Sequence record: MN342151.1
Length of the DNA: 64,000 nt
Reading direction: 5' to 3' (one strand)
From: Escherichia phage vB_EcoM_3HA14
Shown here: in pieces, positions 23,816-60,557 of the stretch
How the letters are laid out: each line of letters starts with the position of its first letter
How positions within the stretch are numbered: position 1 is the first letter of the stretch
Position numbers and translations under genes: made by a program
Notes under the pieces: generated by a model
Database searches by the model: none
Seen by the model: the letters and a program-made list of their open reading frames with translations, nothing else
Told to the model about the DNA's origin: nothing

Positions 23816-24074
23816 GATTGCCTCTGTTAAGTATCTATAAAGATTTTAATCTCTTATCTTTATGTATGTTATACATATAACTTTAAAGCTTTTTAAAAGC
23901 TATTAAAAATCTTTTAAGACTTTTAAAGAAACTGTATAGTTAATCTATAAAGGGAGTCTATTAAGATAAAACCCACTTCGAAAAGACTAACACCTTGTCA
24001 AGTAGTTTGTCAACTTGCTTTTTGAAGAAAATTGCTGTAGGGTATTATCCAGAATGATTTGAGAGGGAGTAAAA
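23816..24074. promoter_or_regulatory. divergent AT-rich intergenic control region
   Basis: 259 nt between divergently oriented gene blocks; repeated TTTTAAA(A)G and TCTATAAAG motifs, two TTGTCA boxes; no promoter assigned with confidence. Confidence 0.4.
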
Positions 24075-26774
24075 ATGGACAATGTAGATTTCGAAAAATT
24101 ACATTTGGTTGGTGATACAGAAACTGATGGGTTGCTCCTTGAGTTTACAAAAGCACACGTAATGGCTTTCGCAGACTATAAAGATGACAGTGATGAACCT
24201 GCTGTGTGGGTTTTCACTGATGAGCCTATTCTTGGTCACAAGTATACAAAATACATCAAAGGTGGTCTGCGTGAAGGTGTTGAGTTTGCACTGAAAGCTA
24301 AACGTCTTTGTATCCACAATGGTCTTGGTTATGACTGGTGGGTGTTTAATCACATTGCACCTGACCTGTGGAACTTTGAGAATCCTAAGTGTAAGCCTTG
24401 GGGTGACTTCTTTCAGGATTCACTTATCCAATCTCGCGTACAGTGGATGGATAGACCTACGCCAAAAGGTTACAAAGGTGCTCATGGTTTAGCTGCATGG
24501 GGTGCTCGTGTAGGTGTCCGTAAACCAGAGATTGAAGAGTGGGGTGTCTGGAATGCAGAGATTCTTACTCGTGTTGTAGAAGATATTAAGATTAACGCCA
24601 AAACTAAACGTGCTCTTGATAATGAGTACCTCAAGCTTAAGAAGTGTGGTGTTGACACTTATGAAACCTACATGCGAGCTAAAGAAACATCCTTCTGGAT
24701 GAGTCAGCAAGCTATCAACGGTTGGAAAGCTGATGTAGAACTTATGCAGTTCCACGTTAAAGAACTTGACAAGTTAACTAACGAGTTGGCTGCTGAGGTT
24801 GAACCACACCTTCCACCAACTATTAAGACAAAAGGTAAAGTCACAGGTGAAGAATTTGCCAAGTCTTGGAACGAGTATGTAGATACATTTGGTCACGTTG
24901 ATGGTTTGAAAAGGATTACCAAGTACCCTAAGACAAAGTATCGTGAACAGATGCGTGAAGGTGAGTTGAAGCAGTACCCTATCAAGCCGTATGGTAAGCC
25001 AACTACAAAGATTTTTAATGTTGAGAAGCGCAACTGCTACACTCCAACTAACACGGTCACAAAAGAAGAGTACCCTGAAGGTTTTGTAGCAATGAAAGAT
25101 GCTCGTGCAGTTTGTAATGAACTGAATGAGAAGATTGGCAAGAAGTGTAAAGATTGGAAGCCAGTTAAGACTGTGAAAACTGTGAAGTACTACAACGTTC
25201 ACGTTGTTAATCACTTTGAGTTAGAGTCTAGTCGCTACACTGGTTTGATTGATGCACCATTCACACCAATTGAGTTTGAAGTTTCACGAATGACTCAGGT
25301 AGCTGTGGTGAAGGATTACTTAAAATCCGTTGGCTGGATTCCTGATGATTGGAACTATAAAAAAGATTCTGACGGTCGTCCTATCAAGGTTTGCAGGTTC
25401 AAAGACAACAAAAAGATGATTCGCAAACATCCTAAGTGGGATGAGATGGTTGAACGTTGTGGGTTGAACTATATTGAGCATGAAGGTGTCTACTACATCG
25501 AGCATAACTGGTCTGTTAAGAAGTACACAGATGTGCTTGAGCCTTGCTTGATTAGGACTTCACCAAAGCTTACAGAATCTTCTTATGATACAATCGAAGG
25601 TGAGCTTGGACAGAAGATTGCGAAGTACTATACTTTGATGCACCGACGCAGGACTATCGAGAACTCAAAGGATGATGAGAAAGGTTGGCTGAACCAGATT
25701 CGTCCAGATGGTCGTTTGAGTGCAGGTGCAATGGTGTTTGGTACTTCTACTGGACGTATGACTCAGTATGGTATTGTGAACGTACCTTCTGGTGCTGCTG
25801 TGTACGGTGAGCCAATGAGGGCAGTGTGGATTTGTGAAGAGGGAACCAACGTAGTATCTGTTGATATGAACTCTGCACAGCTTGTACTACTCTGTAACTT
25901 CATGGGTGATAAAGACTTCACCAAAGCGGTAACAGAGGGTAAAGAAGAGATTGAGTTTGTCCGTCAAGAGGATGGAAGATACTACTGTAAACACTTTGAC
26001 CAGTATCTGAATCCAGAGATTGACAAGTATCTGCGTTACGACTCTGAAAACGATTTGTACGTAGTTTACTCAGGGACTGATGCTCACACTCTGAACAGTA
26101 TCTACTTCAGCCTTAATGATGAGCAAGATATCTTGACTTGTCGTGCTACTCAGGATGAGAATCTTCTTCATGAGATTAGCAAGGGACGTAAGAAAGCTAA
26201 GAATGGTATCTATGCTTTGTTGTTCGGTGCAGGTGATGAGAAGTTTGCTAAAACAATTAAAGCAGCAACTACTCAGGAAGGTGCATTGACTAAGCAGACT
26301 TACTTTGTGCGTTTACCGAAGATTAAGAAACTGTTAGACAACTTGGAAGCTGATTTCAAAGCAACTAAGAAAGCACTTGAAGAGGTGTTTGGTAAAACTG
26401 CTGCAATCTCTAAAGGTGGTTTTGTGAAGGTTGCTGGGGCTTGGCTGTGGTGTAAGTCTCCACACAAACTCTTGAACTATTTGCTGATGGGTTCAGAAGC
26501 ACAAGTTCAGAATGAAGCAATCAACCTTGCATGTCGTCGTATGATTGACGAAGGTTTGATGAAGTTGAATGGTCGTAAACCAGCTATTGGTGCTCGCTTA
26601 CTCTGTGCTTACCACGATGAAACAAGCTGGGAATGTCCAGAGAGCATGACAGCAGATGTGAAAGCAGTAACTGACTGGTATTATGGTCAAGCATCTAAGA
26701 ACCTTGGGCTAAGAAAAGAGACATTGGTCACAGGTGCAGGGAAAGTTGGTAAATCGTGGCTTGAAGTCCACTAA
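24075..26774 (+). CDS. DNA polymerase, family A, with N-terminal 3'-5' exonuclease
   Basis: 899 aa; Exo I-like DTETDG; motif A VVSVDMNSAQLVLL, motif B RKKAKNGIYALLFG, motif C YHDE. Confidence 0.85.
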   Translation: MDNVDFEKLHLVGDTETDGLLLEFTKAHVMAFADYKDDSDEPAVWVFTDEPILGHKYTKYIKGGLREGVEFALKAKRLCIHNGLGYDWWVFNHIAPDLWNFENPKCKPWGDFFQDSLIQSRVQWMDRPTPKGYKGAHGLAAWGARVGVRKPEIEEWGVWNAEILTRVVEDIKINAKTKRALDNEYLKLKKCGVDTYETYMRAKETSFWMSQQAINGWKADVELMQFHVKELDKLTNELAAEVEPHLPPTIKTKGKVTGEEFAKSWNEYVDTFGHVDGLKRITKYPKTKYREQMREGELKQYPIKPYGKPTTKIFNVEKRNCYTPTNTVTKEEYPEGFVAMKDARAVCNELNEKIGKKCKDWKPVKTVKTVKYYNVHVVNHFELESSRYTGLIDAPFTPIEFEVSRMTQVAVVKDYLKSVGWIPDDWNYKKDSDGRPIKVCRFKDNKKMIRKHPKWDEMVERCGLNYIEHEGVYYIEHNWSVKKYTDVLEPCLIRTSPKLTESSYDTIEGELGQKIAKYYTLMHRRRTIENSKDDEKGWLNQIRPDGRLSAGAMVFGTSTGRMTQYGIVNVPSGAAVYGEPMRAVWICEEGTNVVSVDMNSAQLVLLCNFMGDKDFTKAVTEGKEEIEFVRQEDGRYYCKHFDQYLNPEIDKYLRYDSENDLYVVYSGTDAHTLNSIYFSLNDEQDILTCRATQDENLLHEISKGRKKAKNGIYALLFGAGDEKFAKTIKAATTQEGALTKQTYFVRLPKIKKLLDNLEADFKATKKALEEVFGKTAAISKGGFVKVAGAWLWCKSPHKLLNYLLMGSEAQVQNEAINLACRRMIDEGLMKLNGRKPAIGARLLCAYHDETSWECPESMTADVKAVTDWYYGQASKNLGLRKETLVTGAGKVGKSWLEVH

Positions 26775-26835
26775 TAGTATTGACAAGGTGCTCATGGAAG
26801 AGTACCTTATACTATATATTGTATAGGAGACTTGT

Positions 26836-27036
26836 ATGACTATTTCAGAAATTGAAGTTCAACTGCAATGTGCTGGATATTCTCAAAGTGAGATTGAGGC
26901 TATGTGCATCATCATTTGCAGTAGCCATAAGCACCTCAAGCTTTCTAATGAAAATCTTCGCAAGGTTGATATTTTTATTGCTGGAGGTAAGATTATCAAG
27001 GATAAGACAGGCTACCTTAAAGGTGAACGTCTATGA
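26836..27036 (+). CDS. hypothetical protein
   Basis: 66 aa ORF. Confidence 0.4.
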   Translation: MTISEIEVQLQCAGYSQSEIEAMCIIICSSHKHLKLSNENLRKVDIFIAGGKIIKDKTGYLKGERL

Positions 27037-27242
27037 GCCATCGTGGAAGAACTCATCTCGCCATGATGCAAGGTGCTTCAAAAGAGACTATCAAGAATCG
27101 GAAGAAAACTCTTTTTGACAGAATGAATAGACTCATCGATAATGCAAGCCTACCTAACTCTGAAAAGGTTTTCTTGAAAGGGAATCTGAAGAGTATTGCA
27201 CAGGAACTTATTGACATTGAATTTTGGAGACACCAAAAATGA
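27033..27242 (+). CDS. hypothetical protein
   Basis: 69 aa ORF, overlapping stop/start with neighbours. Confidence 0.4.
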   Translation: MSHRGRTHLAMMQGASKETIKNRKKTLFDRMNRLIDNASLPNSEKVFLKGNLKSIAQELIDIEFWRHQK

Positions 27243-27430
27243 CATACGAAGAAGCTCTCGAAGCTATGAAACAGGGCAAGAAAGTTCGAAATGAAAATTT
27301 CACATCTGATGAGTTCTTTGAAATAAAAGACGGAAAGGTTGTATGTGAAATGGGTTACCCAATGGCTGCATGGTACAAGGGGGAACCTTGGCAGAAAACT
27401 GGATGGAGTATCTTTAATGAAACTTTATAG
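27224..27430 (+). CDS. hypothetical protein
   Basis: 68 aa ORF. Confidence 0.4.
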   Translation: METPKMTYEEALEAMKQGKKVRNENFTSDEFFEIKDGKVVCEMGYPMAAWYKGEPWQKTGWSIFNETL

Positions 27431-27549
27431 CATTTGGGGAAGAGTTGGTGAAGGTTATGACTGGACTCTTCTTAAAACAAATGTTAAAAGTAACGAGATA
27501 GCTTACTACAAAATCTATTACCATAAAACTTTTAGAGAGGTAGAGTATC

Positions 27550-27801
27550 GTGAGCAATAAAGAGCAAGAAGCTTTAGCAATCTTCAAGAGCGAAGACAAA
27601 TCAATAGCTTTTGTCTCAGAGGCTTGGTGCAGGGATTTGGGGTATGATTGGTATCTCTTCTTATGCGCTAAGAAAGATGTTAAACCAGTTGATGAAACCC
27701 GATTCAAAGAACTGTATAATATCTGCCAAGAGGGTTATGAAGAACATTACGAAGGTTCTTTGAATCCTGTAAATTCAAAAGCTTCAGATTTATTTTATTG
27801 A
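27550..27801 (+). CDS. hypothetical protein
   Basis: 83 aa ORF. Confidence 0.4.
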   Translation: MSNKEQEALAIFKSEDKSIAFVSEAWCRDLGYDWYLFLCAKKDVKPVDETRFKELYNICQEGYEEHYEGSLNPVNSKASDLFY

Positions 27802-27811
27802 GAGGTTTGAA

Positions 27812-28057
27812 ATGTTAAAATTATTGATACCAGCTTTAGTAGTCCTACTGGTTGGATGTAACCCTTCTTATGAGAATAAGGATGCTTCTTACAGACTTCC
27901 TCCAGAAATGCAAGACTGCAAGATTTATAAACTTAATGGTGATGCCATTAGCAGGGATGTTATTGTAGTTCGCTGCCCAAATTCTCAGACGACAACTTCT
28001 TACAAGTATGGGAAGAATAGTCAGTCACACACCACAGTTTTTGATGGGGGATATTAA
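27812..28057 (+). CDS. putative lipoprotein (signal peptide plus lipobox LLVGC)
   Basis: MLKLLIPALVVLLVGC N-terminus; 81 aa; two further Cys in the mature part. Confidence 0.5.
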   Translation: MLKLLIPALVVLLVGCNPSYENKDASYRLPPEMQDCKIYKLNGDAISRDVIVVRCPNSQTTTSYKYGKNSQSHTTVFDGGY

Positions 28058-28058
28058 T

Positions 28059-28265
28059 ATGCAGGTTCTGGTAAACTTTATCTATAAGTATGAAAACATC
28101 TTCAGCACTATGACTGTAGCTCAACGCAATCCAGTTATTCCACGAGAAGGGGAGACTGTTGAGATTAATGATTGGAACTACAGAGTTGAAGAGGTCAAGC
28201 ATAAACTTAAAGATGGTTATGACCACCAAGTTGTAAATGTGTATTTAAAAGGTAAGTGGCAATGA
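28059..28265 (+). CDS. hypothetical protein
   Basis: ORF 28008..28265 trimmed to internal ATG at 28059 preceded by GGGGGA. Confidence 0.35.
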   Translation: MQVLVNFIYKYENIFSTMTVAQRNPVIPREGETVEINDWNYRVEEVKHKLKDGYDHQVVNVYLKGKWQ

Positions 28266-28795
28266 GTGAAAAAAGGTTATTCAAAGAGTCCTACAGTAAT
28301 CTGAAGATGGGTTATCAAGGCTACTCAATACCTTGGTATGAAGATAAGAAAAAACAGTATTCAAACCCTTTTATATATCAACCTGTAAAACTCTCTGTAC
28401 TGGAGTTTTGGCATGAAACTGGAGCTACGCCATACCAATTTGACAACATGGAATATGCGCGTATTTGTAAAAGTCTTGGTGCAAGACAAGTTGATAATAT
28501 CATTGAACATTTGAAGGATTTGTATAAAGATTTTGCTGGATACTTATACGAGAAACAGTTTGGGGAGTGCTTAAAATACCCAGATGGGTCACTTGTTCTG
28601 CTCTCATACATGTCTAATGGTAACATAAAAATTGCATACAAAGACCTGTGTGATAACTACTATGATTTTTATACTAGATTGAGACTACCATACCCAGATA
28701 GCTCCTTTTCCTTATCTAGCAATGCAATGACGCACTCTGGGAATATTGTTTCTGTTGAAAAATTAAAAAAGACGTGGGAGAAGAAAAATAAATGA
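28262..28795 (+). CDS. hypothetical protein
   Basis: about 177 aa; ATG at 28262 preceded by AAGG. Confidence 0.45.
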   Translation: MSEKRLFKESYSNLKMGYQGYSIPWYEDKKKQYSNPFIYQPVKLSVLEFWHETGATPYQFDNMEYARICKSLGARQVDNIIEHLKDLYKDFAGYLYEKQFGECLKYPDGSLVLLSYMSNGNIKIAYKDLCDNYYDFYTRLRLPYPDSSFSLSSNAMTHSGNIVSVEKLKKTWEKKNK

Positions 28796-29892
28796 CAATT
28801 CTGTACAAACAAAATAAAGATGGTTCTTTCAACGTCTGGTCATGTGTTGCTGTAGGTGATAAAGTCGTCACAACTTATGGTAAAGAAAATGGCAAGATGA
28901 TGTTTGAAGAGTACACAGCAGAGCCAAAGAACATCGGTAAGAAGAATGAGCGTAATGCTGAACAGCAAGCTCTTTTTGAAGTTGCTGCTAAGTACAAGAA
29001 GCAGGTTGACCGTAAAGGGTATGCTTACACAAAATCTGAAGCAGAGAATGTTGAAAAGGTTGGTGTACAGCTTGCTCAGGATGCTTCCAAGATAAGTCAC
29101 AAGAAGTATCTGGTATTTCCTGCCGATGCTCAACCTAAACTTGATGGGGTTCGTTGCAGGATTTCAAGAGATGCTGACTCAGAAAGTTTTACGGCATATT
29201 CTCGTGAGAACACGGTATACAACATTCCTGTAGAGTTGATTCCTGATGTTCTTCTTATGCTGAAACTGCACAAAGATGTTGAAGATTTCGATGGTGAGAT
29301 TTATGCTCATGGTTGGGACTTGGAAGATATTGTATCTATGATTAAGAATGCTGACAATCCAGACCGTCACCTTCTTAAATTCTACTGGTATGATATCTGT
29401 GACAAGACTAAATCTTGGCCTGAGCGTCGTGAAGTTATTGATAATTCACCAATCGTTGAACTCGGTGATGCTTGCAGGGTTGTACCTGTTCAGACAATCC
29501 GTGTTAACTCTTGGGAAGAATTTGATAATGCTCATGACAACTGGGTTAAACTCAAGTTTGAAGGGGCAATGTATCGGTCAATCTCACCAGATTCGTTCTA
29601 TGAGTGTGGTCATCGCTCTTACTTCCTGATTAAGCACAAGAAGATGCACACACAGGAATTTAAAGTAACGGGTGTAAAGACTGATAAACGTGGTCATGGT
29701 AAGTTCGTTGTAGAGACTCTTCCTAACGTCTTTGTAGATGTTTCATGGAAAACTACACACGAGAAGAAAAAGTATCTTGCTGAACATCCTGAAGAGTTTA
29801 TCGGGAAGCCTTTAACGGTTCAGTTCCAGAAGATGACTCGTAAGGGTTCTTTACAGTTCCCTGTTGGGCTAGTAATTCGAGACTATGAATAG
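28792..29892 (+). CDS. ATP-dependent DNA ligase
   Basis: 366 aa; adenylation motif I KLDGVRC (KxDG) at the expected position; size typical of T7-type ligases. Confidence 0.8.
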   Translation: MTILYKQNKDGSFNVWSCVAVGDKVVTTYGKENGKMMFEEYTAEPKNIGKKNERNAEQQALFEVAAKYKKQVDRKGYAYTKSEAENVEKVGVQLAQDASKISHKKYLVFPADAQPKLDGVRCRISRDADSESFTAYSRENTVYNIPVELIPDVLLMLKLHKDVEDFDGEIYAHGWDLEDIVSMIKNADNPDRHLLKFYWYDICDKTKSWPERREVIDNSPIVELGDACRVVPVQTIRVNSWEEFDNAHDNWVKLKFEGAMYRSISPDSFYECGHRSYFLIKHKKMHTQEFKVTGVKTDKRGHGKFVVETLPNVFVDVSWKTTHEKKKYLAEHPEEFIGKPLTVQFQKMTRKGSLQFPVGLVIRDYE

Positions 29893-29900
29893 AGGTTAGT

Positions 29901-30050
29901 ATGTTTAGCACAATTATCCTGTTTGTTTTTGTTGTTTTATCATTATCTTACTTCATAAGTAAACTTTTAAGCATAACATACAAAGCAGCCTTAGCCCTTA
30001 CTCTGTTGTCATTTGCAGTAAATGCAGCAGTTAGAATGTATTTAGTATAA
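29901..30050 (+). CDS. putative small hydrophobic peptide (not in ORF track)
   Basis: ATG at 29901 after GAGG; about 49 codons encoding MFSTIILFVFVVLSLSYFISKLL...; below the track length cut-off. Confidence 0.3.
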   Translation: MFSTIILFVFVVLSLSYFISKLLSITYKAALALTLLSFAVNAAVRMYLV

Positions 30051-30055
30051 AATTG

Positions 30056-30083
30056 TTGACATGAGTAACCTGACGGGTATACT
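30056..30083 (+). promoter_or_regulatory. sigma70-type promoter (TTGACA-N16-TATACT)
   Basis: consensus -35 TTGACA at 30056-30061 and -10 TATACT at 30078-30083, about 50 nt upstream of the 30134 start. Confidence 0.5.
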
Positions 30084-30084
30084 A

Positions 30085-30106
30085 CCTATATAGAAAATTA
30101 TATAGG
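30085..30106. promoter_or_regulatory. operator-like perfect palindrome CCTATATA-N6-TATATAGG
   Basis: 22-bp palindrome immediately downstream of the -10, nested in a 9-bp inverted repeat (30070-30078 / 30108-30116). Confidence 0.4.
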
Positions 30107-30133
30107 AACCCGTCAGAAACCTCGGAGGTGTTT

Positions 30134-30514
30134 ATGAAAAAGTTACTTGTTGGTGTCATTGCTATTGGTATGAGTTTTAGTGCAGCAGCTATGAAGATGC
30201 CTGAAGCAAACTTTAATGGTGTCGCTTTAGAATCTTGTAAGATTGTACAGAAAATCGCTTCAAATGCTGGAGAGTTGACTAAACCGTTGTCTGCTCAGAC
30301 TGTTCAAGAAATGACTGATAAGATGGTTGACTACAACTACCATTTTATGGGAGATTACTATGACAGATTAGCAGATGAGATGGTTACTCAGAACGTTGAC
30401 CTTCTTGATAGCAAAGGTATTGAGACTGTAGAAGATGTGAAAGACAATTTTATGCGTGAGTCTTTCAAAGGTGTTCAATACTTTATTGAAAATCGTCACT
30501 GCATGGGTTTATAA
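30134..30514 (+). CDS. hypothetical secreted protein (N-terminal signal peptide)
   Basis: ATG at 30134 with GGAGG RBS; MKKLLVGVIAIGMSFSAAA signal-like N-terminus. Confidence 0.5.
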   Translation: MKKLLVGVIAIGMSFSAAAMKMPEANFNGVALESCKIVQKIASNAGELTKPLSAQTVQEMTDKMVDYNYHFMGDYYDRLADEMVTQNVDLLDSKGIETVEDVKDNFMRESFKGVQYFIENRHCMGL

Positions 30515-30516
30515 TC

Positions 30517-30720
30517 ATGAAGAAGAACATCTGTAGAGCAGACTACGGTGAAGTAGTCGATGATGACGGAGTAGTTATTTACAGAGTTTGGGCAAGTGAT
30601 TATTCAACCGTTGTAGAGTCTTTAGATAACTACATCAATGGGACTCGTGAAAACGTCAGAGCAACTAATCTTGATTCGTTAATAGACACTTCTCGAAAAC
30701 GGAGAAAGAAAGATGAATGA
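30517..30720 (+). CDS. hypothetical protein
   Basis: 67 aa ORF. Confidence 0.4.
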   Translation: MKKNICRADYGEVVDDDGVVIYRVWASDYSTVVESLDNYINGTRENVRATNLDSLIDTSRKRRKKDE

Positions 30721-31012
30721 AGTCTTTGACCCATATGCACCTCAAGATTCTTGGGAGGCTGATAGAGAGGCTGAAATGGAGAATTATGTCTGTCCAATGG
30801 ATATAGAAGAGATGAAAGACTTTGTATCTTTCAGATTCTCTAAAGAGATTGAGAAGCTAAAACTTTCTCAGGCTCAAGTAGCAACTGTTTGTGAAATCTC
30901 ACAGAGTCGTGTATCAAATATCATTAACGACCCTCAAAAGATTTCTTTAGAGTACATGCTTAATGCTTGTACAAAACTTGGTGTAAATTTTAACTTAAGG
31001 CTGGCAGATTAA
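30713..31012 (+). CDS. putative HTH (XRE-like) DNA-binding protein
   Basis: LSQAQVATVCEISQSRVSNIIN resembles a helix-turn-helix segment. Confidence 0.4.
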   Translation: MNEVFDPYAPQDSWEADREAEMENYVCPMDIEEMKDFVSFRFSKEIEKLKLSQAQVATVCEISQSRVSNIINDPQKISLEYMLNACTKLGVNFNLRLAD

Positions 31013-31013
31013 T

Positions 31014-31373
31014 ATGAAACGTGAAAATGCAATCTTTAACGATAACTTTGCAATTGGCTTCTATGGTAAACCAACTCCAGCAGAGAAGCTTTATGGTAAT
31101 GCAATTCTGGAGACCTTGAAAGAGGTTTACACAACTGGTGGTATGAAGCATACTGAAGCAAACCGTGTAAGAGGTTATATGGCAATTGGCTCTGCAATCT
31201 CTAACATCAAACTTGAAACTACAAGTGCTAAAAAGGTACGAGACCACTTCATCAAAGAGTTGTCAGAGAACCTAGATGGTGTTGAAGTCAAGGCTGTCTG
31301 GTTAGATGTTGATGGTCACAACTATACAACTTTTGTGTTTAAAAATGAGGATATCAAATGTCTCTTCCCTTAA
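31014..31373 (+). CDS. hypothetical protein
   Basis: 119 aa ORF. Confidence 0.45.
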   Translation: MKRENAIFNDNFAIGFYGKPTPAEKLYGNAILETLKEVYTTGGMKHTEANRVRGYMAIGSAISNIKLETTSAKKVRDHFIKELSENLDGVEVKAVWLDVDGHNYTTFVFKNEDIKCLFP

Positions 31374-31861
31374 AACTCGATTTATACTTTGGGTACAGTG
31401 TATTGCAAGGCAGCATACTATCACTACCAAAGTCAGATTATCGTTGTGATTTAGGTTCTGTGAAACGTGCATCACACTTTAACAACAATATCTTAGGCTT
31501 GCAGACACTTCACAGGTGGCTTGAGGAAGATGGACGGTTAAATGAATATCTTCACCAACTAGAACTAGCCAAAGAAGAGGGGCATATGGGTTGGAATTTA
31601 CTACCCCATCTGTACAAACCTGCAAGTCCTATGGAGATACGCTATAACGAACAATCTGTTGATAGTTATAACAAATATAATATAACTATTGGCTCAAGAC
31701 CTTGGAAGGAGTATGGAAAGCTCCGTGAAATCATTATACAGACTATTGGAAAGCGTGTAGCAAAAGGTATTGCTTATGATGAAAAGGTTGACTGGAATAC
31801 ACAAAAGTGTATAAAATTCTTCAAGTACGATAATGACAAAGATACTTTTGTAGAGGTTTAA
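31358..31861 (+). CDS. hypothetical protein
   Basis: 167 aa ORF. Confidence 0.45.
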   Translation: MSLPLKLDLYFGYSVLQGSILSLPKSDYRCDLGSVKRASHFNNNILGLQTLHRWLEEDGRLNEYLHQLELAKEEGHMGWNLLPHLYKPASPMEIRYNEQSVDSYNKYNITIGSRPWKEYGKLREIIIQTIGKRVAKGIAYDEKVDWNTQKCIKFFKYDNDKDTFVEV

Positions 31862-31862
31862 C

Positions 31863-32378
31863 ATGAAAATTGGAATTACCCTTTGCCAGCCTGAAGCAGA
31901 GTTCTTGAAATCAATGTTGTCTGAGCATATGAAGTCCACAAATCACACTGAGAAGACATTCTTGATTGACACTAACTATGATGCAGGAACTATTGAGTTC
32001 ATTGATGAAGACACTGCTGATTCTCTGTGTGTTCTTCCTGCTCACTTATTTACTCCAGAGCTACGTGAAAGTCGTTCTATTGAAGTTAATCTGGAGCCAA
32101 GTATTGAACTGTACTCAGATACACAGTATCCAAGAAGCTTTAAAGCATTGCTAAACATCTTCGTAGCTGATATTGTAGAGATTGTTAAACAGACTGAAGG
32201 TGGTCATGTAGTAACTGCTGAGTATGAACAAGGCACTATCAAACTGACAGGTGACTTTGGTTCTATGAGTTTCTTAGACTTTGTTCCAAAACACTTTGAA
32301 GACTTTCTATCAAGTGAAGTTGATGACCTCGATTTCATACTAAAATTTGAACGCACTTTTAAGGTAAACAAAAAATGA
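31863..32378 (+). CDS. hypothetical protein
   Basis: 171 aa ORF. Confidence 0.45.
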   Translation: MKIGITLCQPEAEFLKSMLSEHMKSTNHTEKTFLIDTNYDAGTIEFIDEDTADSLCVLPAHLFTPELRESRSIEVNLEPSIELYSDTQYPRSFKALLNIFVADIVEIVKQTEGGHVVTAEYEQGTIKLTGDFGSMSFLDFVPKHFEDFLSSEVDDLDFILKFERTFKVNKK

Positions 32379-32647
32379 AAATCTTAAGCGGAGTATCACA
32401 GTGTTACATGAATGATGGTGAGCCAGTTAAATGCTGCCATTGTGGAGGTGAGAACTTCCAAGGTGAAGTTTCAGAGATTGTCTCTGGCAATATCGCTGAA
32501 GAGTACACCCGTTGCTGTGGATGTGGAAAGATTTTATCTTTTTGGGCTTATGGAAGTTATGAACCACAACCTCACCTTATTTACCATCCAAACAGGATTG
32601 TGAAGCGTGTTCTGAACTGGTTCATTATCAAAGGATTTACAAAATGA
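32375..32647 (+). CDS. hypothetical zinc-ribbon protein
   Basis: CCHCGG...CCGCGK paired Cys clusters. Confidence 0.4.
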   Translation: MKILSGVSQCYMNDGEPVKCCHCGGENFQGEVSEIVSGNIAEEYTRCCGCGKILSFWAYGSYEPQPHLIYHPNRIVKRVLNWFIIKGFTK

Positions 32648-33189
32648 TTAAGTTAATTTTTGCAAGTGGTATTAACGGGGAGTTTGGCACAGCTACTGGA
32701 ATGCCTTGGCCTCGTAATAAACAAGATATGGCAGAGTTTAAGAAGCAGACTGTTAACCAGTTAGTCTTGATGGGTAGCGAAACTTGGAAGACTCTTGGGA
32801 GCAAGCCTTTGCCAAACCGTGAGAATATTGTCTTGACAAACTCTCTTGACTTTTACGGTCTGGACTTTAAAGATGACTCTCATTGTAAAGCAAGAGTTAA
32901 GCCTGAAGCTTTTGGGGCTTTCCTGAAGTATATTGATAGCTCTATTGATGAAGATGTTTTAGTAATCGGTGGAGCCAATATCTTAATCTCAGCTTTGCCG
33001 TATGCTGACGTAGTTTTCCACAGTGTTATTAAGGAAGTTACTGAAGAGGCTACTGTCAAGCTACCTTATGAGGGTTTCTTCCAGTACTTGTATGACACAG
33101 AGTTATTTGCTAAAGTACAGTCCAAACCTTCAGAAGATAAGTCTGTTGTGTTTGATACCTATGTTCCACAAGTAAGAGGACGTTTCTAA
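32644..33189 (+). CDS. frd: dihydrofolate reductase
   Basis: 181 aa; GMPW, LVLMGSETW, PLPNRENIVLT motifs in DHFR order. Confidence 0.8.
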   Translation: MIKLIFASGINGEFGTATGMPWPRNKQDMAEFKKQTVNQLVLMGSETWKTLGSKPLPNRENIVLTNSLDFYGLDFKDDSHCKARVKPEAFGAFLKYIDSSIDEDVLVIGGANILISALPYADVVFHSVIKEVTEEATVKLPYEGFFQYLYDTELFAKVQSKPSEDKSVVFDTYVPQVRGRF

Positions 33190-33190
33190 T

Positions 33191-34090
33191 ATGTCACAAG
33201 CAGATGTAAGCTACAAAGCTATTTTAAACCATGTTTTATCAGTTGGTGAGTTGCGTAAAACCCGAACTGGCTCAGTGATTTCAACCTTTGCTCCACCTGA
33301 GTTCCGTTTTGATATGCGTAGTGGATTTCCATTAATCACCTCAAAACAAACATTCATGCGTCAAGTCCTCGGTGAAGCATTATGGTTTATGAACGGTGAA
33401 AACCAACTAGGCCATTTGCGTTACAGAACTTGGGGAGAGAACGACGGAGAGCGTTGGACTATCTGGACAGATGATTTTAAACGTTGGTTGAAAACAACCT
33501 ATGCTACAGAGAATGATTGGCTGGAGGATGCTGGAGGAAGAATCTATGGAGTCCAATGGAGAGCCTACGAAGGTCATGGTGGCGTTGTTGTAGACCAGTT
33601 GAGTAATCTTGTAGAGAAGATGAGAAAGTCTCCTACAGACCGTTACATGCTCGTTAACGCATGGAATGCAGCAGATATCTCAAGTAACTCTATGGCATTA
33701 GCACCTTGCCATGTACTTTTTCAGATTTATATCTCGAACACTAATGAGGTGGATTTGAAATGGTATCAGCGTTCTTGTGATACGTTCTTAGGGTTACCAT
33801 TTAACATTGCTTCCTATGCCTTTATCTTGGAAGTGTTGTGTAAACTGACGGGATATACACCGCGATATCTGGTAGGGACTTATGGTGATACTCAAATCTA
33901 TCAGAACCATATGTCACAGGTTTTTCAGCTTCTTGGCAATGAAGAGTTCCCAGCACCTAAGTTTGAAATTCATCAAGATTTGAAGTCTCTTGAAGACTTG
34001 AGACATATGACAGCAGATGACTTCCTAGGTGGGTTGAAAGGGTATAAACATGCTGGTAAGATTGAAGCACCTTTATCAGTAGGTAAGTAG
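33191..34090 (+). CDS. thyA: thymidylate synthase
   Basis: 299 aa; TRTG, active-site LAPCH, DLKWYQRS and FLGLPFNIASYA motifs. Confidence 0.85.
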   Translation: MSQADVSYKAILNHVLSVGELRKTRTGSVISTFAPPEFRFDMRSGFPLITSKQTFMRQVLGEALWFMNGENQLGHLRYRTWGENDGERWTIWTDDFKRWLKTTYATENDWLEDAGGRIYGVQWRAYEGHGGVVVDQLSNLVEKMRKSPTDRYMLVNAWNAADISSNSMALAPCHVLFQIYISNTNEVDLKWYQRSCDTFLGLPFNIASYAFILEVLCKLTGYTPRYLVGTYGDTQIYQNHMSQVFQLLGNEEFPAPKFEIHQDLKSLEDLRHMTADDFLGGLKGYKHAGKIEAPLSVGK

Positions 34091-34100
34091 AAACAAAAAA

Positions 34101-34120
34101 GGCTCCCGTAAAAAGGAGCC
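34101..34120. terminator. bidirectional terminator hairpin GGCTCC-CGTAAAAA-GGAGCC
   Basis: inverted repeat between convergent thyA (+) and 34127..34501 (-), flanked by A-run and T-rich sequence. Confidence 0.55.
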
Positions 34121-34126
34121 TTAGAA

Positions 34127-58123: not shown

Positions 58124-58199
58124 TGGAGTATCGGAAGGGACTCGAACCCTCATAAACCTGTTTTGCAGACAGGCACATAACCATTTCTGACACCGACAC
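58124..58199 (-). tRNA. tRNA-Cys (GCA)
   Basis: manual fold: acceptor GTGTCGG/CCGATAC, anticodon loop CTGCAAA, T-loop TTCGAGT, U73, encoded CCA. Confidence 0.7.
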
Positions 58200-58205
58200 A
58201 TAATT

Positions 58206-58298
58206 TGGAGGAAGATACCAGACTTGAACTGGTACGCCGATTTCTCGGTTACTGGCAGTTTAGCAAACTGCTCCCTTACCTTTTAGGGTTAATCTTCC
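58206..58298 (-). tRNA. tRNA-Ser (GCU), long variable arm
   Basis: acceptor GGAAGAT/ATCTTCC, anticodon loop TTGCTAA, variable-arm hairpin, T-arm ACCAG-TTCAAGT-CTGGT. Confidence 0.7.
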
Positions 58299-58299
58299 A

Positions 58300-59034
58300 T
58301 TATTTGTTCAGAGCTTCTTTCATCTCTGGAGTTGCGATAGTATCAATCACACCAGTTTTACATGAATCATCAAACCAGCTTGGTAGAACATTCGCAAGGA
58401 AACCATTAATATTTGTTTTCAGATATTCTGCAATCAGTGCTGCTTCATCTGCAATCATCTGAGTTACTTCGTTAGCATATGCAGTAATCTTTGCAATACC
58501 CTCATTAATCGCTGTAACGGCCTGTGTAGCGAGTTCAGAGATTGTATCTAGTCCTTGGTCGATTGCATCTTGCAAATCGCTTAGAACGCCATTTACAGCG
58601 TCTATGGAGGTATTAATCAAATCCATCGCTTTATTACCGTACTCGGTAGCTACGCCCATGATACCGCTAAACGGTGTACATCCAACCTGTTCACCTGCTG
58701 CTCCCATAACGTTAGAGTAACCTTTAGCTACTTGCATACGTTGTGAAAACTCATCTACAGACTTTTGTCCATACTCAGTAAGTGTACTTGTCGTTGAAGT
58801 TGTACTTCCAAGGCTTGTTGTGAAGCTTCCTAATAAGGCTGTTGTCAGTCCAGCAGCAACTAAAATCTGTTGTGTAGCTGGGTCTGTTACAGAACTAATT
58901 GAGTTAACTAATGATTGAGAGGCAGCTATAGTACCACCAAGAACTGCTGCACCAGTAATAAGAGGGTTTGAAAAACCATTACCAGTTTTAAGGAGATTAA
59001 AAATCTCTTTACTTTGTTCTGTCATCTCTTTCAT
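58300..59034 (-). CDS. hypothetical Ala/Thr/Ser-rich protein embedded in tRNA array
   Basis: ORF track start (GTG at 59097) would overlap a tRNA; trimmed to in-frame ATG at 59032-59034 with AGGTG RBS. Confidence 0.4.
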   Translation of the reverse strand: MKEMTEQSKEIFNLLKTGNGFSNPLITGAAVLGGTIAASQSLVNSISSVTDPATQQILVAAGLTTALLGSFTTSLGSTTSTTSTLTEYGQKSVDEFSQRMQVAKGYSNVMGAAGEQVGCTPFSGIMGVATEYGNKAMDLINTSIDAVNGVLSDLQDAIDQGLDTISELATQAVTAINEGIAKITAYANEVTQMIADEAALIAEYLKTNINGFLANVLPSWFDDSCKTGVIDTIATPEMKEALNK

Positions 59035-59050
59035 TATGCACCTATAAAGT

Positions 59051-59127
59051 TGGTAGCCCATCGGGATTTGAACCCTGTTCTCATGTTTTTCAGACACGCG
59101 CTTTAACCATATAAGCTAATTGAGCTA
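59051..59127 (-). tRNA. tRNA-Phe (GAA), tentative
   Basis: anticodon loop CTGAAAA and T-loop TTCAAAT clear; acceptor and T-stem pairings imperfect in manual fold. Confidence 0.45.
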
Positions 59128-59133
59128 TTAAAT

Positions 59134-59210
59134 TGGGGTGACCTACGGGAATCGAACCCGTATAGACCATGTTCACAGCATGGGTCATTATCCATTTATG
59201 ATAAGGCCAC
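59134..59210 (-). tRNA. tRNA-His (GUG)
   Basis: acceptor GTGGCCT/AGGTCAC, anticodon stem CCATG/CATGG with loop CTGTGAA, C73. Confidence 0.7.
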
Positions 59211-59241
59211 ATTTAAGGACTCTCGTAAGAATCCTTAGAAG

Positions 59242-59317
59242 TGGCAGCAGTATAAGGATTTGAACCTTAATCTTTCAGCTTCAGAGGCTGGAGCATTGCC
59301 AGTTATGCTATACTGCT
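59242..59317 (-). tRNA. tRNA-Gln (CUG)
   Basis: 76 nt, standard numbering fits; anticodon loop CTCTGAA; G73. Confidence 0.65.
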
Positions 59318-59323
59318 AATATT

Positions 59324-59402
59324 TGGTACTCCATATCGGATTCGAACCGATACATAACACAGATTTTAAATCTGGCCTCTCTGCCAATTGGAGTAATGGA
59401 GC
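59324..59402 (-). tRNA. tRNA with anticodon UAA (Leu by anticodon), short variable arm
   Basis: anticodon stem CAGA/TCTG, loop TTTAAAA; T-arm ATCGG-TTCGAAT-CCGAT; A73; variable region only about 7 nt. Confidence 0.45.
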
Positions 59403-59404
59403 AT

Positions 59405-59480
59405 TGGCGGGGGATGATGGAATTGAACCATCTTCTTCGATTTCAAAGACCGAGGTTTTAACCTTGTAAACTAATCCCCT
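59405..59480 (-). tRNA. tRNA-Gln (UUG)
   Basis: anticodon stem TCGGT/ATCGA, loop CTTTGAA; T-arm GATGG-TTCAATT-CCATC; G73. Confidence 0.55.
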
Positions 59481-59706
59481 AACGAACTCTTGAAAGAATA
59501 TATGCGTTATTGCAAGTATCCTTATTTTCAGGTAGTGATGTTTCGAAGATAACTTGCTTAAGTTCTAATCCAGCAAAGTTATAAACAACCTTTCTAACTT
59601 CTAACGGGTCACATTGCCAACCAACCGCTATAAAGAAAGTATCTCCAAATCTACCTGTTTCAATCTTGTGGTCATCTTTATGTTTTTCAACTATGAGTTT
59701 ATACAT
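59479..59706 (-). CDS. hypothetical small protein within tRNA array
   Basis: 75 aa ORF filling the gap between two tRNAs; no motif. Confidence 0.3.
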   Translation of the reverse strand: MYKLIVEKHKDDHKIETGRFGDTFFIAVGWQCDPLEVRKVVYNFAGLELKQVIFETSLPENKDTCNNAYILSRVR

Positions 59707-59724
59707 AATGTTACCTATTAAATT

Positions 59725-59801
59725 TGGTGCAGAATAGAGGATTCGAACCCCTAACTAACAACTTCGTAGGTTGCTGCTCTGTCCATTTGAACTAATTCTG
59801 C
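59725..59801 (-). tRNA. tRNA-Arg (ACG)
   Basis: acceptor GCAGAAT/ATTCTGC, anticodon stem GCAAC/GTTGT, loop CTACGAA. Confidence 0.7.
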
Positions 59802-59979
59802 AATATCCTTTTGAGATTCCTGTCTAGCTCTCTTCTTATCTCTTCTGAGAAAGCGTTTACGATGGTCTGTACGCCATTTGTAATAATCTTCTTCACCATC
59901 ATGCGCTGCACAGCAGCCACAACTTGCAATTTCAACTTTACCATGTCTACCATAAGGCTTCATAGGAATCTCCTAAAAT

Positions 59980-60057
59980 TGGTGTTCCAAGACGGATTCG
60001 AACCGTCACTAATACAAGGTTTGAGCTTGCATCCTCTGCCAATTGGGATACTGGAAC
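59980..60057 (-). tRNA. tRNA with anticodon CAA (Leu by anticodon), short variable arm
   Basis: anticodon stem GCAAG/CTTGT, loop CTCAAAC; T-arm GACGG-TTCGAAT-CCGTC; A73; variable region about 6 nt. Confidence 0.45.
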
Positions 60058-60058
60058 T

Positions 60059-60133
60059 TGGTACTCGCTGAAGGACTTGAACCTTCTTCACCAACTTGTA
60101 AGGATGGGGCTTTACCATATAAACTAAGCGAGC
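60059..60133 (-). tRNA. tRNA-Val (UAC)
   Basis: acceptor GCTCGCT/AGCGAGT, anticodon loop CTTACAA, T-arm GAAGG-TTCAAGT-CCTTC. Confidence 0.6.
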
Positions 60134-60228
60134 TTTGAAGAGGTCTGAAGCTGTGCCGCTAACTCAACTCCGTGGAATTTGTTACGGTCTTCAGTTGACT
60201 CAAGCGGTCTTTCACTTGACCTCAAAAT

Positions 60229-60305
60229 TGGTGCTGCTCACAGGACTCGAACCTGCATCTCCATCCTTACAAGGGATGTGCAATAGCCAATTATACGAAA
60301 GCAGC
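60229..60305 (-). tRNA. tRNA-Thr (UGU)
   Basis: anticodon stem CATCC/GGATG, loop CTTGTAA; T-loop TTCGAGT. Confidence 0.65.
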
Positions 60306-60311
60306 ATTATT

Positions 60312-60386
60312 TGGAGCATCCAGAGGGAATCGAACCCTCAACCTCAGTTTGGAAGACTGTAATTTTCCCATTTAAACTATGGATGC
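60312..60386 (-). tRNA. tRNA-Gly (UCC)
   Basis: acceptor GCATCCA/TGGATGC, anticodon loop CTTCCAA, T-arm GAGGG-TTCGATT-CCCTC. Confidence 0.7.
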
Positions 60387-60392
60387 ACTAAT

Positions 60393-60468
60393 TGGTGGAG
60401 AAGCAGGGAATTGAACCCTGTACTTAAGTTTGCAAAACTTATGTTTTAACCATGTAAACTACATCCCC
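60393..60468 (-). tRNA. tRNA-Ala (UGC)
   Basis: G3-U70 wobble pair in acceptor (Ala identity element), anticodon stem TAAGT/ACTTA, loop TTTGCAA. Confidence 0.7.
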
Positions 60469-60474
60469 ATTGTT

Positions 60475-60550
60475 TGGTACAGGTGGAGGGAATTGAACCC
60501 ATCGTCTTACTGATTAAGAGTCAGCCGCATAACCATTTTGCTACACCTGC
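60475..60550 (-). tRNA. tRNA-Lys (CUU)
   Basis: anticodon stem GCTGA/TCAGT, loop CTCTTAA; weak 3-bp T-stem; paralogous to the 61927-62002 tRNA. Confidence 0.5.
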
Positions 60551-60557
60551 ATTAATT

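Follow-up and report, generated by a model that had tools for sequence, protein, structure and literature searches.

What the many small, unnamed genes between DNA polymerase and thymidylate synthase do in Escherichia phage vB_EcoM_3HA14 (sequence record MN342151.1; the 64,000 nucleotides analysed are termed the window), and whether any of them is directed against host defences, is the question raised by this locus. An earlier note had described about 14 open reading frames (ORFs) of 47-180 amino acids with overlapping stop and start codons on both sides of the ligase gene; 14 ORFs of 47-177 amino acids with tight junctions are indeed present, and one of them (27239-27430, 63 amino acids) encodes a Tad2-like protein, Tad2 (Thoeris anti-defence 2) being a characterised phage protein that sponges up signals of bacterial immunity. 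The interpretation offered here, which we regard as evenly poised between right and wrong, is that the ORFs form hyperplastic accessory islands in the + strand block of a Mooglevirus, and that the 63-amino-acid protein is a Tad2-type signal sponge. As judged from its closest relatives, the window phage is a Mooglevirus (Ounavirinae, Felix O1-like): among 259 GenBank phage records matched by megablast with region 26500-33000, the best is Shigella phage Sf15 (coverage 100%, identity 98.8%; Caudoviricetes; Ounavirinae; Mooglevirus). Ounavirinae are known as virulent phages, which agrees with the lytic phages to which the earlier note refers.

The 63-amino-acid protein matches the Pfam family PF11195 ('Tad2-like') with E=3.7e-5 and 24.6 bits, the gathering cut-off being 25.0. 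A word-seeded homologue search with it returned 11 close relatives, and 231 proteins with E<=1e-3 were recovered when 1.84 billion representatives were searched exhaustively with a hidden Markov model (HMM). The family so defined is mostly of ~60 amino acids, with the consensus MTxxEAxxAMxxGKKVxHxxFTxDE...G.I..E.GY...GWsI; PF11195 is matched at E<=0.01 by 26 of 84 of these short-form members (best E=1.9e-6), and no other family recurs. On these profile matches, the 63-amino-acid protein probably belongs to a ~60-amino-acid short-form subgroup of the PF11195/DUF2829 superfamily.

Structure prediction followed by a structure-based search, the check proposed in the earlier note, was run on two ORFs; for 27239-27430 it led to the Tad2 fold, and for the second, gp69-like, ORF (discussed below) it gave no PDB match. 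The AlphaFold2 model of the 63-amino-acid protein, made with a 10-sequence alignment, has a pLDDT of 91.1 and a pTM of 0.75, and consists of one helix (residues 3-11) and four strands (16-18, 27-30, 33-36 and 56-58). When the model was compared with the whole PDB by Foldseek, the top 14 matches were Tad2 structures only, i.e. SPO1 Tad2 (8wje, 8smf, 8smg, 8sme), ModTad2 (9eib, 8v3e) and SptTad2 (8wjd), with probabilities of 0.66-0.99 and query-normalised template modelling (TM) scores of 0.58-0.68, followed at rank 15 by a sharp fall to probability 0.08 and TM 0.29. Matches among the predicted viral structures of BFVD include a 63-amino-acid 'DUF2829 domain-containing protein' (TM 0.70) and a 'Thoeris anti-defense 2-like' protein (TM 0.80). 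Very probably, therefore, on the strength of the model, the 63-amino-acid protein has the Tad2 fold, made up of alpha1 and an antiparallel sheet, and is a Tad2 homologue. Matches of the protein to LIM-domain and FlaI entries of the PDB, with E-values similar to those of the Tad2 matches, were rejected as chance.

For comparison with characterised proteins, SPO1 Tad2 was taken from the SPO1 genome as gp34.65 (89 amino acids), with a numbering that reproduces the published W25, N26, W73 and D79. These four residues contact the ligand, and alpha2, which lies in the beta2-beta3 loop, forms a V-shaped dimer, the protein being a homotetramer with interfacial pockets (bioRxiv 10.1101/2023.05.01.538930). 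Alignment of the short-form family profile with SPO1 Tad2 by hhalign (E=0.0015, 45 columns) places F21 opposite W25 and T22 opposite N26, as do HMM alignments to ModTad2 and SptTad2, and the C-terminal G55-W56-x-I aligns to the (E)DW-x-I strand of Tad2 proteins. Position 21 remains aromatic (F in 77 of the 84 short-form members), and A6, G13, F21, E25, E37, G39, G55 and W56 are near-invariant across the family. The short form shares with SPO1 gp34.65, ModTad2, SptTad2 and HgmTad2 an N-terminal helix with EAxxAxKxGKKV, an antiparallel sheet and a C-terminal (D/G)W-x-I strand, as well as being small, phage-encoded and accessory, and its own Pfam match is close to the threshold; it differs in length, the characterised proteins having 89-104 amino acids, and in the invariant E25 and E37 that are peculiar to its subgroup. 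By contrast, Tad1, Acb2, Acb4 and Sequestin/PF21825 are unrelated to the short-form domain in sequence and fold, and what they share with it is the predicted action only, that of a small oligomer sequestering a nucleotide signal, as is general for phage signal sponges (PMC12265669). A search of the literature found no report of a Tad2-type protein from Felix O1-like phages.

If the 63-amino-acid protein acts as characterised Tad2 proteins do, it would oligomerise and sequester a nucleotide-derived immune signal, in a pocket which may be formed by the conserved F21/T22 of the beta1-beta2 loop and the C-terminal G55-W56. Candidate ligands would be gcADPR, His-ADPR, N7-cADPR, cyclic di- or trinucleotides and cCMP/cUMP; with the signal sequestered, the effector of a Thoeris, CBASS or Pycsar system would never be activated, so enabling the phage to replicate in hosts with such a system. 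By analogy with the characterised proteins, a function as a sponge is put forward tentatively as the most likely one, its probability being a little short of even. The altered contacts weigh little against such a role, because the ligand range of the Tad2 family is already diverse, its members variously binding gcADPR, His-ADPR, cyclic dinucleotides, cCMP/cUMP and N7-cADPR (PMC12393519).

A number of points nevertheless weigh against the sponge proposal. The PF11195 score is 0.4 bits short of the gathering cut-off and the match spans positions 1-40 out of 73 in the profile, the hhalign probability with SPO1 Tad2 is 17%, and searches of all PDB chains with the protein sequence and with two family profiles reach Tad2 weakly (E 0.06-0.4), through the N-terminal helix alone. 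The Foldseek E-values in the PDB are just ~0.08, modest values that can be ascribed to the very small size of the protein. The two SPO1 contacts that are best defined, W25 and N26, are replaced by F21 and T22; W45, by manual alignment a possible equivalent of W73, is kept in 27 of 84 members; and no clear equivalent of D79 was found in the alignment to SPO1 Tad2. The alpha2 loop that supplies the dimer interface (SPO1 residues 35-58, 24 residues) is replaced by a D31-G32 turn, through which beta2 (27-30) is joined to beta3 (33-36) in the AlphaFold2 model, so that the dimer contact must differ from that of SPO1 Tad2. Invariant glutamates, as at positions 25 and 37, are unusual for a phosphate-binding pocket. 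Fusions to Acb4, Sequestin, Tad1 or Acb2 were absent from 48 longer family members scanned with Pfam, and we know of no short-form member that has been assayed. The scans made of the other 13 listed ORFs gave no positive functional evidence. With regard to the 'early' timing claimed for the cluster, a sigma-70 promoter scan was at chance level (33 sites, 28.9 +/- 5.2 being expected from shuffles) and a literature search found no transcriptome of a Felix O1-type phage. The protein is named Tad2-like, rather than 'a Tad2', because two features that define the characterised proteins, their alpha2 interface and their precise ligand contacts, are missing from it.

Several of these points, i.e. the change of W25/N26 to F/T, the invariant acidic E25 and E37, the missing alpha2 dimerisation loop, the sub-threshold Pfam score and the absence of known sponge-domain fusions among the 48 proteins scanned, would also suit a protein which has the Tad2/DUF2829 fold but does not sponge an immune signal, being instead a small, generic domain with a binding or adaptor role, its partner being another metabolite or a protein. 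Such a role could explain why unrelated C-terminal extensions are frequent: 52 of the family members listed exceed 100 amino acids and, in those mapped, the domain is mostly N-terminal to heterogeneous tails. This alternative is nevertheless rather unlikely, since the only solved folds that the model resembles are those of Tad2 sponges, since the ligand specificity of characterised Tad2 proteins is already very plastic (PMC12393519), since some short-form family members carry tandem duplications of the domain, as sponges do, and since the gene is accessory, decays readily and occurs in pre-early or hyperplastic regions in the manner of counter-defence genes. The Pfam matches in the 48 longer members were PF11195 (4 members) and one SEC-C motif; several longer members (P0018, P0022, P0023, P0031, P0036) have a strongly basic C-terminal tail, KGKGHNKLQKRKKK.

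The distribution of the Tad2-like gene bears on the same issue. A tblastn search found homologues in 455 phage records, in each case without a name or with a wrong one, and the carriers include Mooglevirus, Suspvirus, SE1-like phages, T5-like Epseptimavirus, T4-like Klebsiella and Citrobacter phages, phi92-like phages and an Erwinia phage. Only a minority of Ounavirinae carry it: copies at >=60% identity occur in no more than ~44 records, as against ~290 with the ligase at >=60%, and among the genomes compared here it is present only in Sf15, ESh20 (shortened) and phiSUSP1. In a T5-like phage it lies within the left terminal repeat, adjoining A1 and A2, a location that in T5 is the pre-early, first-step-transfer region, and in the T4-like Merlin it is part of a run of small ORFs between nrdH and gene 55. 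Damaged or remodelled copies occur in close relatives: in Citrobacter phage BSwM KMM2 the gene is frameshifted into the gp58 frame, giving a 106-amino-acid fusion ORF (region 27339-27560; P0179, P0057 and P0008 compared); in vB_SflM_004 the N-terminal helix is gone, with a gp55-like N-terminus in its place; and the shortened ESh20 copy is from a record marked 'UNVERIFIED', in which a sequencing error is possible. These damaged copies reflect either real gene decay or sequencing errors. As supportive context, and by analogy, a patchy spread across unrelated virulent phages together with easy loss would fit counter-defence genes. The 3' end of the gene also appears to have been remodelled. The C-terminal KASDLF(Y/F) of gp59 (27776-27801) also ends the 70-amino-acid Tad2-like homologues P0005 and P0006, and the phiSUSP1 gene (L009, 7501-7713) likewise encodes 70 amino acids; the shared KASDLF end suggests a recombination event at the 3' end of the Tad2-like gene, either an insertion of gp58 together with most of gp59 or their deletion.

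The features of the block are collected in Table 1, in which the protein names gp55-gp70 follow those of homologues, compared by tblastn across 8 Ounavirinae genomes.

Table 1. Genes and signals of the polymerase-to-thymidylate synthase block, in window positions.
Feature	Position	Strand	Basis
DNA polymerase	24075-26774	+	ORF listing
gp55-like, 66 amino acids	26836-27036	+	phrog_4230 E=8.7e-36; 35-38% identity in Felixounavirus/Suspvirus, where ligase 92%
gp56-like, 69 amino acids, basic, isoelectric point (pI) 10.4	27033-27242	+	phrog_5180 E=2.6e-46; identity 87% Felixounavirus, 60% Kolesnikvirus
Tad2-like short form, 63 amino acids; candidate nucleotide immune-signal sponge	27239-27430	+	Pfam PF11195, AlphaFold2 model, Foldseek
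gp58-like, 47 amino acids, 14-nucleotide overlap with Tad2-like gene	27417-27560	+	phrog_2381 E=8.1e-21; Felixounavirus identity 57-62%
gp59-like, 83 amino acids, acidic	27550-27801	+	phrog_9065 E=1.1e-49
gp60-like predicted lipoprotein, 81 amino acids, lipobox LVGC, Asn at +2	27812-28057	+	sequence; phrog_902 E=5.1e-17
gp61-like, 68 amino acids	28059-28265	+	phrog_4427 E=1.9e-42; 53-58% identity in Felixounavirus/Suspvirus
gp62-like near-orphan, 177 amino acids	28262-28795	+	no PHROG, Pfam or NCBIfam match
ATP-dependent DNA ligase, between both islands	28792-29892	+	PF01068, 34.6 bits, cut-off 26.2
Hydrophobic ORF, 49 amino acids, two predicted membrane segments, grand average of hydropathy (GRAVY) 1.70	29901-30050	+	phrog_22006 E=2.2e-7
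Promoter-like site TTGACA-16-TATACT overlapping stable hairpin	30056-30116	+	promoter scan, 11/12 matches; RNA fold
gp64-like predicted exported protein, 126 amino acids, signal peptide, two invariant Cys	30134-30514	+	sequence and alignment; phrog_4332 E=8.9e-65
gp65-like, 67 amino acids	30517-30720	+	phrog_4473 E=7.5e-40; Felixounavirus identity 54%
gp66-like Cro/CI-type helix-turn-helix (HTH) protein, 99 amino acids	30713-31012	+	Pfam HTH_3/HTH_37; phrog_1373 'transcriptional regulator' E=7.3e-24
gp67-like, 119 amino acids	31014-31373	+	phrog_4116 E=8.7e-67; 71% identity in Felixounavirus/Suspvirus
gp68-like, 167 amino acids	31358-31861	+	phrog_9143 E=2.2e-106
gp69-like acidic protein, 171 amino acids, pI 4.6	31863-32378	+	phrog_4422 E=1.4e-90; Felixounavirus identity 41%
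gp70-like zinc-ribbon protein, 90 amino acids (CCHC ... CCGC)	32375-32647	+	sequence; phrog_2993 E=4.6e-38 over residues 5-90
Thymidylate synthase	33191-34090	+	ORF listing
Terminator-like hairpin, bidirectional, closing the + block 3' of thymidylate synthase	34099-34122	both	terminator scan

The block is co-directional (+ strand, 24075-34090) and runs from DNA polymerase through ligase and DHFR to thymidylate synthase, with eight genes from polymerase to ligase and six from 30517 to DHFR, as counted from the ORF list and the Sf15 and ESh20 annotations; two further small ORFs (29901-30050 and 30134-30514) lie outside the earlier list. The homologous region of seven other Ounavirinae was compared, every window protein being searched by tblastn. 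Polymerase, ligase and thymidylate synthase are 78-94% identical in Felixounavirus and Suspvirus (ligase alone 86-92%, and 64% in Kolesnikvirus), and for the enzymes that flank the islands the range is 86-94%. By contrast, gp55, gp61, gp64, gp65 and gp69 keep their position with identities of just 33-58%, and for gp55, gp64 and gp69 identity is 33-41% where that of the ligase is 92% (gp64 in Felixounavirus just 33-34%). Judged by these identities, those small proteins that are conserved evolve far more quickly than the enzymes on either side.

Other genes of the block vary in presence. Of the 8 compared genomes, Sf15 and ESh20 alone carry gp62 (for which just 2 clusters were found among 5.8 billion proteins), gp59 is confined to Mooglevirus (Sf15, ESh20, Moogle), as is the 49-amino-acid ORF, and gp68 is present in Mooglevirus and Suspvirus only, being absent from Kolesnikvirus and the three Felixounavirus loci. 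Roughly half of the ORFs (gp55, gp56, gp58, gp60, gp61, gp64-67, gp69 and gp70) are conserved in Felixounavirus, Suspvirus and Mooglevirus and so are not simple strain-specific accessory genes. The Kolesnikvirus Erwinia phage Roscha1 has a wholly different set of ~12 genes between polymerase and ligase (L008, 1166-6454), with annotations that include a putative tRNA nucleotidyltransferase/poly(A) polymerase and a putative transposase, and one gene only between ligase and DHFR; its gene set implies that the island exchanges content freely. Conservation of gp67 in Kolesnikvirus (37% by tblastn) was considered doubtful, as global alignment gives 20%. Taken as gene content, both stretches are hyperplastic islands, built around a set of small genes that evolve fast but are conserved.

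They resemble in this the T4 nrdH-55-type regions and the T5 pre-early terminal repeat, where short, overlapping, mostly unnamed genes of variable content likewise lie between conserved enzymes and where, in Merlin and a T5-like phage, the same Tad2-like gene is found; the difference is the conservation here of about half of the ORFs across three Ounavirinae genera. The suggestion in the earlier note that such a cluster is a typical place for takeover or anti-defence genes holds up in so far as variable islands lie between conserved enzymes and one ORF has a predicted Tad2 fold; it gains nothing from the other 13 ORFs.

Insertions differ between the relatives as well. An HNH homing endonuclease gene lies directly 3' of the polymerase gene in several of them (L002, 477-1004; L006, 4513-5040; L007, 4892-5395; L009, 6691-7218; L005, 3891-5228), and in Salmonella phage GEC_vB_NS7 the polymerase is annotated as two pieces; in the window and Sf15 the polymerase gene is uninterrupted and the HNH gene is absent. 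Between the ligase gene and the gp64 homologue, Felixounavirus, Suspvirus and Moogle have two extra genes of 588 and 441 nucleotides (L006, 8011-9290; L007, 7882-9033; L009, 9660-10690; L010, 4664-5694), with annotated repeat regions in dune and nataliec; the same interval of the window holds just the 49-amino-acid membrane ORF and an 83-nucleotide gap.

It may instead be that most of the small ORFs encode auxiliary factors of DNA replication, nucleotide metabolism or regulation, working with the co-expressed enzymes. They lie on the same strand as the enzymes, in tight translational coupling with them, one terminator closes the block, and the order of gp56, gp58, gp60, gp61, gp64-67, gp69 and gp70 is conserved across Felixounavirus, Suspvirus and Mooglevirus; a regulator and a zinc-ribbon protein are also present. 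The gp66-like protein matches HTH_3 (E=2.8e-8, 34.1 bits, cut-off 23) and HTH_37 (E=3.7e-7, 30.3 bits, cut-off 27) and is a probable DNA-binding regulator. The gp70-like protein has two knuckles ~25 residues apart, C21-H-C23 in KCCHCGG and C48-G-C50 in RCCGCGK, with a weak NCBIfam match (ECs_2282_CxxC, E=0.018). The earlier statement that an HTH and a zinc ribbon were the only recognisable motifs is therefore confirmed for those two and is overtaken by the Tad2-like 27239-27430. As an account of most of the ORFs, however, auxiliary functions are unlikely: no replication or metabolism family was matched in Pfam, NCBIfam or PDB, the small proteins are 33-55% identical where neighbouring enzymes are 92% identical, Kolesnikvirus keeps the enzymes and has almost none of the small proteins, and three of the proteins are predicted to be targeted to the envelope.

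Those three proteins (27812-28057, 29901-30050 and 30134-30514) could act in superinfection exclusion or receptor masking, and not against an intracellular defence. Such roles, for which T5 Llp and T4 Imm/Sp are precedents, are compatible with the lipobox of the first, whose +2 residue is not Asp, with the hydrophobic character of the second, a 49-mer, and with the signal peptide and two invariant cysteines of the third. Many virulent phages, from several genera, carry a member of the gp60-like lipoprotein family (569 phage records by tblastn, including Vibrio, Acinetobacter and Aeromonas phages, all 'hypothetical'). The predicted lipoprotein, periplasmic and small membrane proteins may thus act in superinfection exclusion; as a full account of the three, we likewise hold this unlikely, their localisation being a prediction and the sequence and profile searches having shown no similarity to characterised exclusion proteins. 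The small genes other than the Tad2-like one are best read as a mix of an HTH regulator, predicted envelope proteins and putative host-interaction factors.

The remaining ORFs gave less. Searches of PDB sequences and profiles with gp62, gp64, gp67, gp68 and gp69 found no credible match, and homologue searches with gp62 and gp69 returned close relatives only, which precludes deep alignments. The AlphaFold2 model of the gp69-like protein (pLDDT 83.6) has a duplicated helix plus beta-strand module, and Foldseek found no credible neighbour for it in the PDB (best probability 0.25, TM <=0.22). Its internal repeat is weak, 25 of 2000 shuffles scoring as high by Smith-Waterman (p ~0.01), and none was found by BLASTP. 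That gp69 is a DNA mimic or clamp-like, as suspected from its being acidic and duplicated, was rejected as unsupported, the PCNA/beta-clamp matches being poor (TM ~0.15). Apart from the HTH protein, the Pfam scan of the ORFs gave no match above threshold and the NCBIfam scan no usable match; a PADLOC-DB scan of ten ORFs matched no defence model, the only hit being a sub-threshold DpdA fragment (E=0.0099, 13 bits). All eight proteins looked up have entries in public databases, each as 'hypothetical' or 'uncharacterized'; the exact gp68- and gp69-like sequences (31358-32378) are entered there under Escherichia phage vB_EcoM_3HA14.

That the ORFs are chance frames or annotation artefacts, to which the shortness of several (47-69 amino acids) and the ambiguous start codons of two might lend colour, is for practical purposes refuted by PHROG matches with E down to 2e-106, protein conservation across genera, consistent overlaps and confident models. 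Each of the 14 listed ORFs except gp62 has a PHROG match (E 5.1e-17 to 2.2e-106), always to a family of 'unknown function' save for that of the HTH protein, and gp62 has conserved homologues; these matches, together with the conservation of most of them in other Ounavirinae genera, mark the 14 as genuine genes. They clearly do not all correspond to known structural or housekeeping phage proteins, the outcome that would have spoken against the earlier note. Neighbouring genes overlap by 4-16 nucleotides or are separated by 1-10, with ATGA-type overlaps at 27033, 27239, 28262, 28792, 32375 and 32644, and on this arrangement the ORFs are real, translationally coupled genes. For gp62 an upstream GTG at 28256 would give 179 amino acids; the ATG at 28262 is the most likely start, as it overlaps the preceding gp61 stop as ATGA. 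For gp70 the start at 32375 is favoured by the phrog_2993 match, which spans residues 5-90.

Should the short form prove active, it would represent the minimal Tad2 scaffold and add one or more ligand specificities to an already plastic family. A more far-reaching proposal, that the ~60-amino-acid form is a distinct minimal sponge class with a new oligomer architecture, a new pocket (F21/T22 plus E25/E37) and possibly an unassigned signal, and that gp62 and gp69 are further counter-defence proteins, appears quite improbable. The Tad2-like assignment turns an unnamed 63-amino-acid gene of ~450 virulent enterobacterial phages into a testable candidate. Felix O1-like and Moogle-like phages serve for the typing of Salmonella and Shigella and as components of therapeutic phage cocktails, and knowledge of their counter-defence content helps to predict host range. 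The novelty is modest, as the genes are already in public databases and the Tad2-like superfamily is a large one that has been described before; the rest of the cluster is routine for large virulent phages and leaves current understanding unchanged.

The only sizeable intergenic gap in the + block, 30051-30133, contains the best placed site of the promoter scan, TTGACA-16-TATACT at 30056-30083. This site overlaps a predicted hairpin of -25.9 kcal/mol (z=-3.6; 0/200 shuffles as stable), a nested inverted repeat CTGACGGG..CCTATATA/TATATAGG..CCCGTCAG that has no T-run; the repeat lies upstream of the gp64-like gene and could serve as a regulatory hairpin or be bound by a protein. On a larger scale, the sign of the GC skew changes near 24000 and again near 34000, matching a + strand block flanked by - strand genes. 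Large tRNA sets have been described in Felix O1-like phages, and in the window 23 tRNA genes, every one above the Rfam gathering score, are clustered on the - strand at 58127-63155.

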